From a virus (taxonomy: Duplodnaviria; Caudoviricetes), in the IMG/VR virus record IMGVR_UViG_3300010355_000898, positions 160,001-224,000 of that record: a stretch of 64,000 nucleotides of DNA; one strand, written 5' to 3'. A program made the position numbers and the translations under genes. Under the pieces are notes generated by a model. That model was not told where the DNA came from and made no database searches. It saw nothing but the letters and a program-made list of their open reading frames with translations. Below, in pieces: positions 2,009 through 56,705 of this stretch. Position 1 is the stretch's first letter; the number at the start of each line of letters is the position of its first letter.

Positions 2009-2174
2009 TGTACTGATATTCAAACTGCATTCAACAATTAACAAAAAATTTGATGATGTTATTGAACAGATCAAAAATGTTGATATGAATGCCAATACAA
2101 CAAAAATTGGTAATACAGATTTCATTGACAAATTGTTTATGGCGCACAGAAAGAATTATGAAAAGAGAACATAA
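1959..2174 (+). CDS. Small protein with N-terminal hydrophobic anchor
   Basis: MLILMLTLILMIQLLNSVLIF hydrophobic stretch; fills the gap between sigma and the HTH gene; overlaps the sigma tail. Confidence 0.5.
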   Translation: MLILMLTLILMIQLLNSVLIFKLHSTINKKFDDVIEQIKNVDMNANTTKIGNTDFIDKLFMAHRKNYEKRT

Positions 2175-2436
2175 AGAATATTCAACAATTGGCGATATTG
2201 AAGGAGAAAATTTCAGAAATATTGCAGACATATTGTCAAAGATGGGTTACAAAATGAATCATTCATCTGTTCACAATTATGTTTCAAAGATAATGAAAAA
2301 GTTTGCGGGAGGTTTTGCTGAACACTATGGATATAAATGTTCTGAACAAAATCTATCAATGATAGCAAAATCTTCACTGTTCCAAAATGGTTTGGCTGAA
2401 ATATTGCACAAAATTGAAAATGAAAATCGAGAGTAA
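2158..2436 (+). CDS. Small helix-turn-helix protein (sigma region 4-like)
   Basis: GENFRNIADILSKMGYKMNHSSVHNYVSKIMKKF fits an HTH pattern; likely start ATG2158. Confidence 0.6.
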   Translation: MKREHKEYSTIGDIEGENFRNIADILSKMGYKMNHSSVHNYVSKIMKKFAGGFAEHYGYKCSEQNLSMIAKSSLFQNGLAEILHKIENENRE

Positions 2437-30445: not shown

Positions 30446-31234
30446 TCAAAATATTCCAAATTGACTATCAATCTTTAAGCGTCTATATGATTTTTTCAAA
30501 TTTTGCAATGTAGTTGTCAACTGCTTTGGTGTTAATCCAGATAGATCTCTCAAATATAACAACAATGCACTCTTATTCAACAGATCAATATTGTCAATGT
30601 TTTCAAATATTGTTATGATTGAATTGATGCAAACCAATTCATTTTCTGTTTTGGATTGATTTCTAACTTCATACATCATTTCAATAATGTTTGATGCAGT
30701 ATTTTTGCTCTCAACTATTACATCCTGAGAAGGAATTATTGAATAGTTTTCAATTGCACGTTGATCTGATAATGATAATGATTCACTGTCATCAATACTA
30801 ACGTTCTTTTTGACTTTTTGAGCACGTTGTTTTGTCTTTATGATCAGCCAATTTTTTGCAACAACGTTAAAATATGAAAATGCATTTGTTCCTCTTGTCG
30901 CATCAAATTTATTCAAAGTTTCAAAAAGAAAATTGACACAATCATCTCTCAAATCATTATATGTGTCATGAAGTGATGTGAATTTATGAATATTGATCAA
31001 ATTTTCAACCAACTTTACAAAAGCTGGCATAACATCTGTTACATAGATTGCATTCTTATCATTTATAGATTGTGTGCCCTGATATTTTACTATTGCAGCT
31101 TGTGTATCCTGATTAAAATACATTCTTGCTTGTCTTGCTTTTTCATCGCCATCTTTTCTTCTGCGACGTTTTTTTATTGGCTTCTGCTCAACATTAGTCA
31201 TTTGTTGTGTCGTTTTGATTTTCATCATTTTCAT
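30446..31234 (-). CDS. Phage late-transcription sigma factor (T4 gp55-like, region 2 only)
   Basis: YF...AIVKY, KLVENLI, DLRDDCVNFLFETLNKFDATRGTNAFSYFNVVAKN are sigma region-2 motifs. Confidence 0.7.
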   Translation of the reverse strand: MKMMKIKTTQQMTNVEQKPIKKRRRRKDGDEKARQARMYFNQDTQAAIVKYQGTQSINDKNAIYVTDVMPAFVKLVENLINIHKFTSLHDTYNDLRDDCVNFLFETLNKFDATRGTNAFSYFNVVAKNWLIIKTKQRAQKVKKNVSIDDSESLSLSDQRAIENYSIIPSQDVIVESKNTASNIIEMMYEVRNQSKTENELVCINSIITIFENIDNIDLLNKSALLLYLRDLSGLTPKQLTTTLQNLKKSYRRLKIDSQFGIF

Positions 31235-31520
31235 CACTTTCAACCATTAAATTTGCAACAAGCAATAGGGCATTTATTGATTGTTTCATTTCAAATATGA
31301 ATTTTTTCACAATTGGATCATCTATTAACACAGGTATTTGTGCCATTTCTGACAATATTCTGTATCTATCATTCAAAATATCAAGTGATTTTTCAGTCTG
31401 TTCTGTTACTTCTTCAAGTTTATCAAACAACATTTCAGATTTATGAAAAAACACATATGCAATCAATGATGCAGTGATTAACAAAATTGTTAACAGAATA
31501 ACAACATATATCATAACCAT
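31194..31520 (-). CDS. Small membrane protein (N-terminal TM plus coiled coil)
   Basis: IYVVILLTILLITASLIAYVFF hydrophobic helix. Confidence 0.7.
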   Translation of the reverse strand: MVMIYVVILLTILLITASLIAYVFFHKSEMLFDKLEEVTEQTEKSLDILNDRYRILSEMAQIPVLIDDPIVKKFIFEMKQSINALLLVANLMVESDENDENQNDTTND

Positions 31521-50429: not shown

Positions 50430-50545
50430 TATCCTGTACATAACTATCACAAATTTGTAATTTGAATTGTATGCATGCGAATGATGTCATTTTTGGTAAG
50501 GATTTGATTGATTGTGTCAAACAAGTTATTGAATACGTACATAGA

Positions 50546-51685
50546 ATGACATCAATTGATAAAAGTATATTCATTAATGAAAAATTGAATATTCAATCAT
50601 CAATCAGTACAGCTGCAAAATTTAAGCCAAATCAATCACAACAAAAGAACATATATGATATCATAATGAATGCTGCAATCAGAGCAGAGATGATATCTCC
50701 TGGATCTTTTGAAAAGACACTCAATTTAATCGTCAATTCATACAGTGGTAACCAACATTTGAATGACAAAAAGAAAATTGGGGTCAATCTGGATGGTAAG
50801 AATGATATGTTGGTGAGGCACCAATCAACCACTGATTGGGAAACTGTTGTCAATAGATTTATTGCAACGTTGGGATCTGATTTTGACATGTTTATGGATG
50901 CAATCAAACTTGCAGGATTTGCAGGAAAAATTCAGATTGAAAAATCTGTCAATGAATATGATATCATTCATAAACGTTCAGGTTTCAATTTCAGTCTTCA
51001 AACGTTTGGAAACATTAAACGTTTACTTAACACAAAAATTGTGATCATTGATGGTTTGATTGAGAACGTATCAGAAGTTCACAATATGTTGTCTGTTTGT
51101 GCTGAAACAAAATGTCCATTAACAATTGTTGCAAGAGGATACAGTGATGATGTTTTGAACACAATCAATGTTAACAATTTGAGAGGATCATTTCAGGTAT
51201 TGCCATTGGCTGCAAAATTTGATATTGCAACTGCAAACACATTGGTTGACATTGCAGTCATTTCAAAAAGTGATATCATTTCATCATTGAAAGGTGAGTT
51301 GATTTCAACTGTCAAATTTGATACGCTGAAATATGTTGATGAGATCAATGTGAATGGTGACATTGTTACAATGAAAAATTGTGTTGACGTCACAACACAT
51401 ATCAAACAATTGCAAAAAAAGAGGGAAGAAGTTGATGAAAGTGTTCAATATGTGTATGATGACAGAATAAAATCATTGTCACAAAATCTTGTCATATTGA
51501 AATTGAAAAATGACATCAACTTTGTGAATAGAGCACAAAAATTTGACGTTGCAATCAGAACACTGCAATCATACATAAAATTTGGAATTTATGAAGATGA
51601 ATTGGCTGCAACCCAATATGCTTCTGAAGTGTATTCAAGATCATGTTTAAGGATGATTAACAGTTTGGGTGCAATCATTTCATAA
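50546..51685 (+). CDS. Divergent, shortened GroEL-like chaperonin
   Basis: Apical domain IVIIDGLIENVSEV...PLTIVARGYSDDVLNTINVNNLRG, DIAV, DRIKSL; GDGTTT absent. Confidence 0.75.
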   Translation: MTSIDKSIFINEKLNIQSSISTAAKFKPNQSQQKNIYDIIMNAAIRAEMISPGSFEKTLNLIVNSYSGNQHLNDKKKIGVNLDGKNDMLVRHQSTTDWETVVNRFIATLGSDFDMFMDAIKLAGFAGKIQIEKSVNEYDIIHKRSGFNFSLQTFGNIKRLLNTKIVIIDGLIENVSEVHNMLSVCAETKCPLTIVARGYSDDVLNTINVNNLRGSFQVLPLAAKFDIATANTLVDIAVISKSDIISSLKGELISTVKFDTLKYVDEINVNGDIVTMKNCVDVTTHIKQLQKKREEVDESVQYVYDDRIKSLSQNLVILKLKNDINFVNRAQKFDVAIRTLQSYIKFGIYEDELAATQYASEVYSRSCLRMINSLGAIIS

Positions 51686-53336: not shown

Positions 53337-53584
53337 ATGACACGTATAATCAGTTACAGTCTGAAAAAATTGTTGAAGAGAATGAACAATGCAGATTGAT
53401 TCTGAGCGAAATAAACAATTTTGGTATCTCTGACAGACAGAGACAGTATTTGATTTATCTACTTGCACTTGAACTTGAAAATCATGATTGTTTAAGAATA
53501 ATGATTGAAGCAACAAAGGAATGCAATCAATTGATTTGTGAACAACAAGGAAAAATATTTCTATTGCCTGAAGAGGAAAAATAA
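53333..53584 (+). CDS. Hypothetical protein
   Basis: 83-aa ORF coupled on both sides. Confidence 0.65.
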   Translation: MNDTYNQLQSEKIVEENEQCRLILSEINNFGISDRQRQYLIYLLALELENHDCLRIMIEATKECNQLICEQQGKIFLLPEEEK

Positions 53585-54162
53585 TGGGAAGAATATCTGG
53601 TAATAAGTTTTCAATTGGATCATATGATGAGCCCGTAATTATGGGATCAAATGATGGTGCAAGAATTGTCATGTTGCATGGTGATGTAACAGAATATTCA
53701 ATCGCCGCAACAATAATGCAATTGATTGCATATGCAAATATGAACAATAAAAAACCAATAACATTGGTCATATCAACATACGGTGGATCTGTTGATGAAA
53801 TGTTCAGTTTATATGATGTGATAAAATTTCTACCATGCCCAGTTCATACACTTGCATTGGGTAAAGTCATGTCAGCCGGTGTTCTATTGTTGGCTTCTGG
53901 AAAAAAGGGTCACAGAACCATTGGCAGTAATGCCAGAATTATGATTCATGCAATATCTGGGGGTGTTGGTGGTAATGTATTGGAAATTCTAAATCAGAGT
54001 GATGAGATCAAGAGAATGCAAGAACAGATGACAAAAACAATTCTTGCTGAAACAAAATTCACTGAAAAAGAATTGTCTGACATCATGAATAGTAAAGGTG
54101 ATGTGTACATTACACCTGAACAAGCAGTCAAATTTGGTATTGTTGATCAAATCATAAAATGA
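53584..54162 (+). CDS. clpP: Clp protease proteolytic subunit
   Basis: ISTYGGSV, GKVMSAG (Ser), IMIH (His), GDVYITPEQAVKFGIVD (Asp). Confidence 0.92.
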   Translation: MGRISGNKFSIGSYDEPVIMGSNDGARIVMLHGDVTEYSIAATIMQLIAYANMNNKKPITLVISTYGGSVDEMFSLYDVIKFLPCPVHTLALGKVMSAGVLLLASGKKGHRTIGSNARIMIHAISGGVGGNVLEILNQSDEIKRMQEQMTKTILAETKFTEKELSDIMNSKGDVYITPEQAVKFGIVDQIIK

Positions 54163-54202: not shown

Positions 54203-55837
54203 ATGTATAATGTTACGTTTGATCAATGTAAGCAATATTTTCCACTGAAACAAGCAAGACATTCACAACAAACAGCAATTGAATTTGCAGTGAATGCTTT
54301 CAATAGTGGAAAAAAATTTGTAATACTTGAATTACCTGTTGGCTGTGGAAAGTCTGCTGTTGGTGTAACAATTGCAAACTATTTCAATTCAAATCCAATT
54401 GGAAATCAGTCAGGTGCTTACATTTTGACAACACAAAAAGTTTTACAGGATCAGTATGTTTCTGATTTTGGTCCCAAAAGTTTGAATATTTTGAGATCAA
54501 TAAAATCAAGTTCAAATTATCAATGTTTACATAATAGAGATCAAACTTGTGCTGAAAGCAGAAGAGTTCTATTTCAATTGAGAGAACAATTGGCAGGAAC
54601 CGAATATGCAAAAGTTTGTGGTTGTAAATGTAGTTACAAACTTGACAAAGATAAGTTTATTCAGTCTCTGATTGGTGTTACAAACTTTTCATATTTTCTT
54701 GCTGAGACAGCATATAAAGGTGATTTGACGCCAAGACAATTGTTGATAATAGATGAAGCACACAATATTGAAAGTGAATTGTCAAAAGTGATTGAAATTT
54801 CATTTTCAGAAAAGGTTGCAAAAAAATTGTTGGGATGTAAATTGATGAAAAAACAACCAACGCAAGAGAATGTTTACAAATGGTTGACAACTTCATACAT
54901 TGTAGCGCTCAAAAAATATATTGCAAATCTTCAAATCAAATTGAGTAATGCATTGAGAACTGCAAATACAGTTCTTGGGAAAGAGTATGCTCAACAATTT
55001 GAGAAACTTGATAAACATATTTGTAAGGTTAATCGTTTCATTGATGAATATAATCAGGAAAATTGGATTTTGAATGTAAGCATTGATGAAAAAACAAAAT
55101 TGAAAAAATTTGAATTCAAACCAATTGATGTGTCAACTTATGGCAATGACAAATTGTACAAATTTGGTGAAAAAGTTTTGTTAATGTCAGCGACAATAAT
55201 CAATAAAGAAGCATTTTGTGAATCAATTGGTATACCAATGAATGATGTCGAATTTTTGAGTTTACCTTCAACATTTCCAGTTGAAAATAGACTTATTCAT
55301 TTTATGCCAGTTGGAAGTATGTCAAAGTCAATTATTGATATTACATTGCCAAAAATGGCAAAAGCAATTGAATACATTCTTGACAATCATCAAGAAAAAG
55401 GAATTATTCATACTGTGAATTACAGAATTGCTCAATACATTGTTGAGAATGTAAAATCAGATAGATTACTATTACATGATGCAACAAATAGAGAAGATGT
55501 TCTAAAAAAGCATATTGAATGCAGTGAAAATACTGTATTGATTTCACCTTCAATGACAGAAGGTGTTGATCTCTATGATCAGAACAGCAGATTTCAAATT
55601 ATATGTAAGGTACCATTTCCATATTTGGGTGATGAAATGGTAAAACGCCGTATGGAAAGAAGCAAAATTTGGTACAATTTTCAGACAGCAAAAACATTGA
55701 TTCAATCATTGGGAAGATCAGTGAGGAATGAAAATGATTATGCAATATCATACATACTTGACAATGATTGGGAAAAATTCTATAAATTGAATCAATCAAT
55801 ATTTCCAAATGATTTCAAACAATTATTGAGGATGTAA
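54203..55837 (+). CDS. DinG/Rad3-family SF2 helicase with Fe-S cysteines
   Basis: LPVGCGKS, Cys cluster, IIDEAHN, MSAT, EGVD, KVPFP, QSLGRSVR. Confidence 0.9.
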   Translation: MYNVTFDQCKQYFPLKQARHSQQTAIEFAVNAFNSGKKFVILELPVGCGKSAVGVTIANYFNSNPIGNQSGAYILTTQKVLQDQYVSDFGPKSLNILRSIKSSSNYQCLHNRDQTCAESRRVLFQLREQLAGTEYAKVCGCKCSYKLDKDKFIQSLIGVTNFSYFLAETAYKGDLTPRQLLIIDEAHNIESELSKVIEISFSEKVAKKLLGCKLMKKQPTQENVYKWLTTSYIVALKKYIANLQIKLSNALRTANTVLGKEYAQQFEKLDKHICKVNRFIDEYNQENWILNVSIDEKTKLKKFEFKPIDVSTYGNDKLYKFGEKVLLMSATIINKEAFCESIGIPMNDVEFLSLPSTFPVENRLIHFMPVGSMSKSIIDITLPKMAKAIEYILDNHQEKGIIHTVNYRIAQYIVENVKSDRLLLHDATNREDVLKKHIECSENTVLISPSMTEGVDLYDQNSRFQIICKVPFPYLGDEMVKRRMERSKIWYNFQTAKTLIQSLGRSVRNENDYAISYILDNDWEKFYKLNQSIFPNDFKQLLRM

Positions 55838-56091
55838 TGCCAAGGAACAAAAAAGTTGTAAATAATGTTGGTGTTGAAAGAACGCTTGAAAAATGGGAAG
55901 AGATAAAAATCTATATTCAAGCTTGTGATTTGGATGTGCACAACAATTTATTGAAAGGTAATCTGTCTGCTGGTAGAAGGATCAGAAATGCTTTTAGAGA
56001 GATAAAAAAACTTATACATCAATTTCAGATGGAAATCATGACAATTGATAAGAATAGAATTGAGCAAAAAGAAAACAAAGCTGATAAATAA
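55837..56091 (+). CDS. Histone H1-like (Hc1-type) small DNA-binding protein
   Basis: KGNLSAGRRIRNAFREIKKL matches the GNxxAGxRxR motif. Confidence 0.6.
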   Translation: MPRNKKVVNNVGVERTLEKWEEIKIYIQACDLDVHNNLLKGNLSAGRRIRNAFREIKKLIHQFQMEIMTIDKNRIEQKENKADK

Positions 56092-56422: not shown

Positions 56423-56662
56423 TTAGGTTTCTTTTTTGATTTTTGAGAAAACGTTTTTTTCAATTTGACATATTCTCATTCTTGTTAATGAGAACCATTT
56501 TCCTATTGTTTGAAGTGTGTGTGGACCATTTTGTGCTGCTATCATTATGCAATTATGATTGTCTTCGCAATTTAACCAATGTTTACATTGTGTTCTTTGA
56601 CAATGAACATTGTGTTTCATATGAGCGCCAAAACAAGTTATTCCTTCAACAATATTGTTCAT
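56423..56662 (-). CDS. Stand-alone sigma70 region 4.2 HTH protein with Cys/His-rich N-terminus
   Basis: HTLQTIGKWFSLTRMRICQIEKNVFSKIK aligns with RpoD [29 protein letters not shown]; five Cys and several His upstream. Confidence 0.85.
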   Translation of the reverse strand: MNNIVEGITCFGAHMKHNVHCQRTQCKHWLNCEDNHNCIMIAAQNGPHTLQTIGKWFSLTRMRICQIEKNVFSKIKKET

Positions 56663-56705
56663 AATTTAACCATCTATGATATAATGTAATTAACGCCTCT
56701 GAACA
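56656..56705. promoter_or_regulatory. Overlapping divergent promoters: + TGTTCA-N18-TATAAT (phoH) and - TGTTCA-N18-TATCAT (sigma-4 gene)
   Basis: + boxes at 56656-56661 and 56680-56685; - boxes at 56700-56705 and 56676-56681. Confidence 0.55.

Follow-up and report, generated by a model that had tools for sequence, protein, structure and literature searches.

A free region 4.2-like protein and a truncated RpoD-like sigma factor as a candidate two-piece sigma factor in uncultured jumbo phages

A clade of uncultured phages with genomes of about 300-370 kb keeps a primary-type sigma factor that lacks only the helix reading the -35 promoter element. Alongside it, these phages encode a free region 4.2 module, in which a changed helix corresponds to a changed -35 box. 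The free module is a protein of 79 residues encoded at 56423-56662 on the minus strand of the window, the stretch of 64,000 nucleotides analysed here, and the sigma factor is a protein of 289 residues encoded at 1139-2008 on the plus strand. We propose, with moderate confidence, that the small protein is the detached -35-reading module of the truncated sigma. Since the former possesses, of a sigma factor, only the helix-turn-helix (HTH) that reads the -35 element and the latter ends just before the recognition helix, the two probably act as a two-piece sigma factor. The HTH would bind a non-canonical element, (c)TTG(T/A)ACA, and the truncated sigma, having lost its own recognition helix, would supply core binding, -10 recognition and region 4.1. 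Assembled on the host core RNA polymerase, they would form a sigma factor for an early/middle promoter class of the form TGWACA-N17-TAnAAT.

The window corresponds to bases 160001-224000 of a 269,547-base IMG/VR record (37% G+C, about 74% complete) that comes from an uncultured jumbo phage. Contigs of its relatives reach 369 kb, and fragment sizes combined with CheckV estimates point to the genome size range given above for the clade. Among deposited phages, neither a tblastn search of 50,697 records with the 79-residue protein nor a megablast search with 14 kb of sequence returned a match, and the nearest relatives of the sigma factor are merely 31-38% identical. One of the best of these deposited relatives, in a record named 'Acinetobacter phage MD-2021a' (CAKLQH020000002.1, 228029-231784), lies in an rpoD-ybeD-lipB arrangement that resembles a bacterial chromosome and not a phage.

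The 79-residue protein and its family

The open reading frame at 56423-56662 encodes 79 residues and contains both sequence strings singled out in the first-pass annotation. Its conservation across viral sequences confirms that it is a real gene and no chance reading frame. A word-indexed search recovered 61 homologues of the protein, and relatives were found on 203 viral contigs. A full profile search of 1.84 billion proteins, run with no limit on length, gave 414 cluster representatives at E<=1e-3, the best 150 of which measure 41-198 residues with a single exception of 1262 residues that matches by its HTH only. As these representatives are short and the long exception shares nothing but the HTH, the best 150 of the 414 give no sign of a fusion between the four-cysteine and HTH modules and a sigma body. 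Entries for the family in the ESM Atlas fall solely in viral clusters labelled 'Sigma-70 region 4'. Most relatives carry a basic N-terminal extension of about 15 residues (MQ..KK.L.VI) that is missing from the window's protein.

The AlphaFold2 model, built from 117 sequences, has a mean pLDDT of 93.3 and contains four helices (residues 10-17, 39-44, 50-56 and 61-78). The C-terminal half is a region 4.2-like HTH (residues 42-77; 56432-56539, minus strand). It matches the Pfam family Sigma70_r4 (PF04545) at 27.5 bits, above the cut-off of 24.1 (27.8 bits in a six-frame search of the genome), and does so only over profile positions 15-50. The NCBIfam and PHROG matches likewise all fall at the extreme C-terminus of sigma models. 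Profile matches to SigA region 4 in the PDB reach 2.6e-6, and Foldseek superposes 30-38 residues of the HTH on region 4 of SigA/RpoD with an rmsd of 0.3-1.8 A and 38-50% identity, at E values above 0.5 because the aligned stretch is short. The HTH is thus homologous to region 4.2 of group 1 sigma-70 factors (RpoD/SigA), from which the protein differs in possessing neither regions 1-3 nor a recognisable region 4.1, in carrying four cysteines before the HTH and in being encoded separately. Region 2 is absent, the sole PF04542 match of the whole 269.5 kb record being the 289-residue sigma; alone, the small protein does not qualify as a bona fide sigma-70 family sigma factor.

A profile built from 29 homologues can be aligned to residues 568-600 of E. 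coli RpoD with no gap and places the recognition helix TRMRICQIE (56459-56485, minus strand) opposite RpoD 583-591. The alignment bears out the substitutions first read from the single sequence: R584 is kept as R61, E585 is replaced by M62 and R588 by C65. Also retained are R586 (R63), Q589 (Q66) and E591. The original description of a stand-alone region 4.2 HTH changed at the positions of RpoD 585 and 588 therefore holds, given the Pfam match above cut-off and the profile alignment. These positions matter for promoter reading, as we take E585 and R588 of RpoD to be tied to position -33 of the -35 box and R584 to position -31, following classical suppressor genetics. The sequence TRMRICQIEK is invariant in the 29 close homologues. 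In distant family members the helix reads TRERVRQIE, the canonical form, or differs again, as in VRVKQIED, and the presence of the canonical helix indicates that the family descends from an ordinary region 4.2.

The N-terminal half had been described as a Cys/His scaffold, a description that the family alignment amends. Four cysteines are conserved among the 117 sequences (C10-x10-C21-x4-C26-x11-C38; 56549-56635, minus strand), of which C10, C21 and C26 never vary and C38, in the pair N37-C38, hardly does; neither the histidines nor C32 are conserved, which leaves a Cys4 module. In the model, these cysteines lie at the start of helix 10-17, in a loop and before helix 39-44. The module is a probable metal site. 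It would probably bind zinc and hold the small domain together, and may offer a docking surface. Searches with Foldseek against the PDB, VIA-align wide and BFVD found no fold that covers the Cys4 module, only the HTH being aligned, at Z values of 3 or less throughout; nor did these fold searches superpose the N-terminal module on region 4.1, which it had been suggested to replace. The motif of zinc-binding anti-sigma (ZAS) domains, H-x3-C-x2-C, is absent, and no CxxC pair occurs anywhere in the family alignment.

The genes surrounding the 79-residue gene include a ClpP-like prohead protease (53584-54162; phrog_94, 1.6e-31), a GroEL-like protein (50462-51685; phrog_5725, 4.1e-16) and a DNA helicase. 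An 84-residue protein resembling Hc1, the chlamydial histone H1-like protein, is encoded on the plus strand at 55837-56091 (PF07432, 31.1 bits against a cut-off of 23.5), and such a gene is found near the small gene in 39 of 80 loci. A gene for a PhoH-like ATPase is the divergent neighbour of the small gene in 79 of 80.

An RpoD-like sigma factor without a recognition helix

The 289-residue protein is the only RpoD-like sigma factor of the record. It comprises regions 1.2, 2, 3 and 4.1 followed by the first helix of the HTH, and lacks the -35 recognition helix. Pfam reports regions 2 and 3 only, and the alignment to E. coli RpoD (residues 363-572, about 1e-44) stops after LRLRFGL in region 4.1. 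A region 4.1 remnant is detected in the genome search at 1820-1882 on the plus strand (PF04545 positions 2-19, 14.5 bits). Together with positions 15-50 in the 79-residue protein, this makes two PF04545 matches in the entire 269.5 kb, along with one region 2.

The truncation is shared by the relatives of this sigma. The best 120 homologues (258-299 residues) all contain regions 2 and 3, and none has a PF04545 region 4. In an alignment of 28 orthologues, region 4.1 is invariant (KEAAILRLRFGL) and 27 of the 28 proteins stop at one and the same point (...AILRLRFGLVED..YPITEEE..VM.GKGLT-stop), so that the tail holds region 4.1, the first HTH helix and the turn, with nothing at the place of the recognition helix. 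The window's own sigma adds 17 C-terminal residues, an acidic tail that has no counterpart in its relatives (1958-2008). Six-frame translations of a 369 kb relative with terminal repeats (G001) and of a relative that is 91% complete (G003), with stop codons read through, gave only two complementary PF04545 matches each. In these genomes and in the window's own record (G000), the sigma covers profile positions 2-19 (2-31 in G003) and the small protein positions 15/18-50, with no other match, which argues that no frameshifted or read-through region 4.2 is hidden after the sigma. Judged from these alignments, the truncation is a conserved state and not decay. The division between the two proteins is not clean, since the first HTH helix remains on the sigma (YPITEEE...GLT) and the HTH of the small protein is complete in itself.

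The two genes occur together in the most complete genomes. Ten large contigs carry the small gene and eight of them encode one truncated sigma each, including the contigs that are 100, 99, 91 and 84% complete (and hence all three that reach at least 90%). The small gene is found on none of five sigma-bearing fragments (26-63% complete), and both genes lie on 2 of 47 fragments that are 3-40% complete. Such low counts arise because the genes are at least 55 kb apart, which makes the tests on fragments uninformative. Here, the genes are separated by 55 kb and lie on opposite strands; in the linear G001 record the distance is about 270 kb. As all instances of co-occurrence belong to one clade, shared ancestry alone could produce it.

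The gene that strictly accompanies the sigma is another one. It lies downstream on the same strand (2158-2436, plus strand), in synteny at 88 of 88 loci, and encodes a conserved helical protein of 92 residues. Its distribution follows that of the sigma, as it is present in G001 and G003 and absent from phages of 185 kb. The protein has a helical model (pLDDT 82) and invariant MNHSS and NYREIAD motifs; 13 of 32 members show a weak match to DUF6471, and the searches found no known family or fold for it. The idea that it could be a second sigma region 4 HTH was dropped for want of support in Pfam, PHROGs and a PDB profile search, with an hhalign probability of 3% and no sigma region 4 in the Foldseek top 50. 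The protein may instead act as the true partner of the sigma, as an anti-sigma or as a third component.

A second, separate sigma factor is encoded at 30446-31243 on the minus strand. It resembles the late sigma gp55 (phrog_234, 'late sigma transcription factor', E 9.9e-5), and a search of five complete relatives detected one in each, the 185 kb phages without an RpoD-like sigma among them. A distant Cys4-HTH member coexists with a gp55-like sigma, in the absence of an RpoD-like one, in three complete phages (184-191 kb), and the module can therefore work without the truncated sigma and is older or more general than it. As to history, it is likelier that an RpoD-like sigma entered a lineage in which the module was already present, and that its recognition helix was then lost, than that a gene underwent fission.

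These genomes also lend themselves to another reading, in which the small protein would be an autonomous mimic of sigma region 4 that acts on the host RNA polymerase with no need of the truncated sigma. By occupying the beta flap, -35-like DNA or both, it would either displace region 4 of the host sigma-70, for shut-off or appropriation, or be the -35/flap module of the gp55-like sigma, in the way that T4 gp33 serves gp55. Consistent with this reading are the phages whose only sigma-like gene is gp55-like, the small and stand-alone character of the family among the best 150 of 414 representatives and the closeness of the HTH to region 4 of primary sigmas. Stand-alone Sigma70_r4 proteins are moreover common in uncultured phages, as unstudied annotations, and a 'minimal' single-HTH sigma is described, alongside RpoD-like sigmas, in group 2 jumbo phages by Iyer et al. 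2021 (PMC7824862). We nonetheless find a mimic possible but doubtful, as it leaves unexplained both the conserved loss of just the recognition helix in the clade's RpoD-like sigma and the pairing of an invariant altered helix with a conserved, changed -35 box that lies 16-18 bp away from a -10 element of the sigma-70 type. PHROG, Pfam and fold searches returned no gp33 or AsiA match either, a class of small helical proteins that is easily missed.

A further reading would let both incomplete phage sigmas, the RpoD-like one and the gp55-like one, draw on one free region 4.2 module. The Cys4 would then be a sensing or docking device, possibly an Fe-S or redox metal site as in WhiB, making -35 reading detachable and conditional, and promoter choice would depend on which sigma core is joined and on the metal or redox conditions inside the infected cell. 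We consider this scheme very unlikely. The WhiB features are missing from the family, in which the cysteines are spaced C-x10-C-x4-C-x11-C, no GxWGG turn occurs and no Whib Pfam match appears at E<=10.

The promoter class and its candidate readers

Two related phages, one of 37% and one of 56% G+C, have a promoter class of the form TGWACA-N16-18-nAnnnT that is enriched before genes, which TTGACA is not. In the window's phage, there are 64 copies of TG[TA]ACA-N16-18-TAnnnT, and 16 of these precede the start of a gene on the same strand by no more than 80 nt (3.8 expected); the TTGACA version occurs 30 times, with 2 before genes (1.8 expected), and control hexamers gave no enrichment before genes in this phage. 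The relative with 56% G+C (G001) has 18 sites of the TGWACA class, 9 of which precede genes against 1.0 expected, and 10 of the TTGACA kind, none of which does. The claim that promoters of the window carry a changed -35 box is supported by these promoter-like sites, and extends to this relative: the box is TGWACA rather than TTGACA, with ACA kept. A home-made EM refinement of the promoter motif was dropped, having drifted into coding sequence in G000. Many TGAACA-N17-TAnnnT sites in G001 end 0-9 nt before a start codon (for example at 312158, 337045 and 233921), which suggests that the mRNAs started from them are leaderless or nearly so.

The small gene is itself preceded by such a site. TGTTCA-N18-TATCAT (56676-56705, minus strand), first reported from the sequence alone, lies 13 nt before the ATG, its two boxes being the reverse complements of 56700-56705 and 56676-56681. 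Across 68 distinct loci, the class is present upstream of the gene in 39, with about 2.2 expected, and the consensus is cTTGTACAc-N17-TACAtT; TTGACA is found in 4. The first gene of the sigma operon has the class upstream in 22 of 53 loci (2.6 expected), and the region immediately upstream of the sigma gene itself contains none. Since the class covers both component genes, a positive loop is possible. Autoregulation had been suggested from the upstream region of the 79-residue gene; the gene's own promoter type in this position, here and in 39 of 68 relatives, fits the suggestion and does not by itself demonstrate it.

The element keeps ACA at positions -32 to -30 and departs from the canonical box at -34 and -33, and can alternatively be read as TTG-N-ACA. 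The residues changed in the recognition helix (585 and 588) are those tied to -33, and R584, tied to -31, is kept. The main argument that the 79-residue protein would read this box is the joint presence of an invariant altered helix and a conserved altered box across very different base compositions. In the distant subfamily, the gene abuts the upstream gene and has no promoter of its own with which the helix could co-vary, and the alignment is too variable for a scan of loci. In the phages of about 185 kb, the conserved upstream gene ends in ...IENIFD.IEKEHPDL, and the Cys4-HTH gene that abuts it is probably translationally coupled to it.

A simpler explanation would have the TGWACA promoters read by the primary sigma of each host, the 79-residue protein taking no part. 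The TTGTACA form retains both the TTG and the ACA of the canonical box, and the sigma operon and the small gene, which both carry the class, need the host enzyme first. With the class before both component genes, either basal transcription is started by a host sigma or the host simply reads the class itself. We regard the latter as quite unlikely, because one unusual box recurs in two phages, of 37% and 56% G+C, whose hosts are probably different, and because TTGACA is not enriched before genes in either.

The layout around the small gene raises a further alternative. The divergent PhoH-like gene has its own promoter-like site, TGTTCA-N18-TATAAT (56656-56685, plus strand), the -35 box of which lies within the first codons of the 79-residue gene. 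The two sites are interlocked between 56656 and 56705, each -35 box being in or at the start codon region of the other gene, and TGTTCA at 56656-56661 forms an inverted repeat with TGAACA at 56700-56705. A conserved divergent pair with overlapping promoter-like sites is a layout common for autoregulated regulators, and TGTACA is palindromic. The 79-residue protein could accordingly be an ordinary sequence-specific repressor or activator with an HTH derived from sigma region 4 and with no closer contact to RNA polymerase than other regulators have, in which case the sigma would work without -35 recognition or with the 92-residue protein, whose synteny in all 88 loci and shared distribution would suit a partner. 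This account seems unlikely to us, as the element keeps a fixed distance of 16-18 bp to a -10-like hexamer and stands near gene starts, like a -35 box, and as the non-palindromic TGAACA is used equally; the 92-residue protein, in addition, shows no likeness to sigma region 4 and no clear likeness to an HTH.

A candidate split sigma among known systems

To return to the two-piece sigma factor, G000, G001 and G003 encode region 2 on one protein and the HTH for the -35 element on another, and have no complete sigma of that type, as is the case in split sigmas. The proposal predicts that the small protein contacts the sigma or the beta flap. A complex prediction for sigma residues 205-289 with the 79-residue protein scored 0.52, against 0.01 for the best of three controls; this is in the weak range of the test. 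In its calibration, 58 of 80 solved complexes and 2 of 110 mismatched pairs attained the mark, and those that did so with a score of at most 0.60 were 7 of the 80 and the two passing mismatches. At least 88% of contacts were shared between runs, and the partner had a pLDDT of at least 75. The modelled contact is a small push towards the proposal and no proof.

Textbook sigma factors are single polypeptides. If the proposal is correct, a sigma that is normal in other respects can obtain its -35 reading in trans, which would bear on the folding of domain 4 and its docking on the beta flap. The proposal would further account for how early/middle promoters are recognised in T4-like phages that have no MotA/AsiA, and would provide synthetic biology with a compact orthogonal pair of promoter and sigma.

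The phages described by Iyer et al. (PMC7824862) resemble those studied here in having a gp55-like late sigma, no RNA polymerase of their own, sigma genes and a one-HTH sigma-like protein. The Cys4 module, the truncated RpoD-like partner and the promoter link are not given in the sections available of that account. In a literature search of incomplete coverage, we found no publication that describes a primary-type sigma missing just the recognition helix, a phage sigma without region 4, or a Cys4-region 4.2 or cysteine-containing Sigma70_r4 protein.

WhiB-like (Wbl) proteins are small four-cysteine Fe-S proteins that bind region 4 of SigA, with the motif C-Xn-C-X2-C-X5-C and a G[VI]WGG turn, and they appeared as partners in the best structural matches of the 79-residue model. 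Unlike in Wbl proteins, this spacing and turn are absent here and the four cysteines are fused to the region 4-like HTH itself.

To our knowledge, all known split sigmas divide between domains 2 and 4. In T4, genes 33 and 55 lie apart, and gp33 does not bind DNA. Two-subunit sigma factors include T4 gp55 with gp33, SPO1 gp33 with gp34, B. subtilis SigO-RsoA and Tn916 Sig7-Sig8 (bioRxiv 10.64898/2026.10.01.756105). The pair proposed here resembles them in the spread of functions over two polypeptides, with region 2 on one and a region 4-like part on the other, and in the setting of a phage or mobile element. Its genes are far apart, unlike the adjacent or co-transcribed genes of SigO-RsoA and Sig7-Sig8. 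The division also differs in falling inside domain 4, where a near-full sigma is left without its last recognition helix only. If the two proteins act together, the pair would be a variation on the two-subunit sigma theme.
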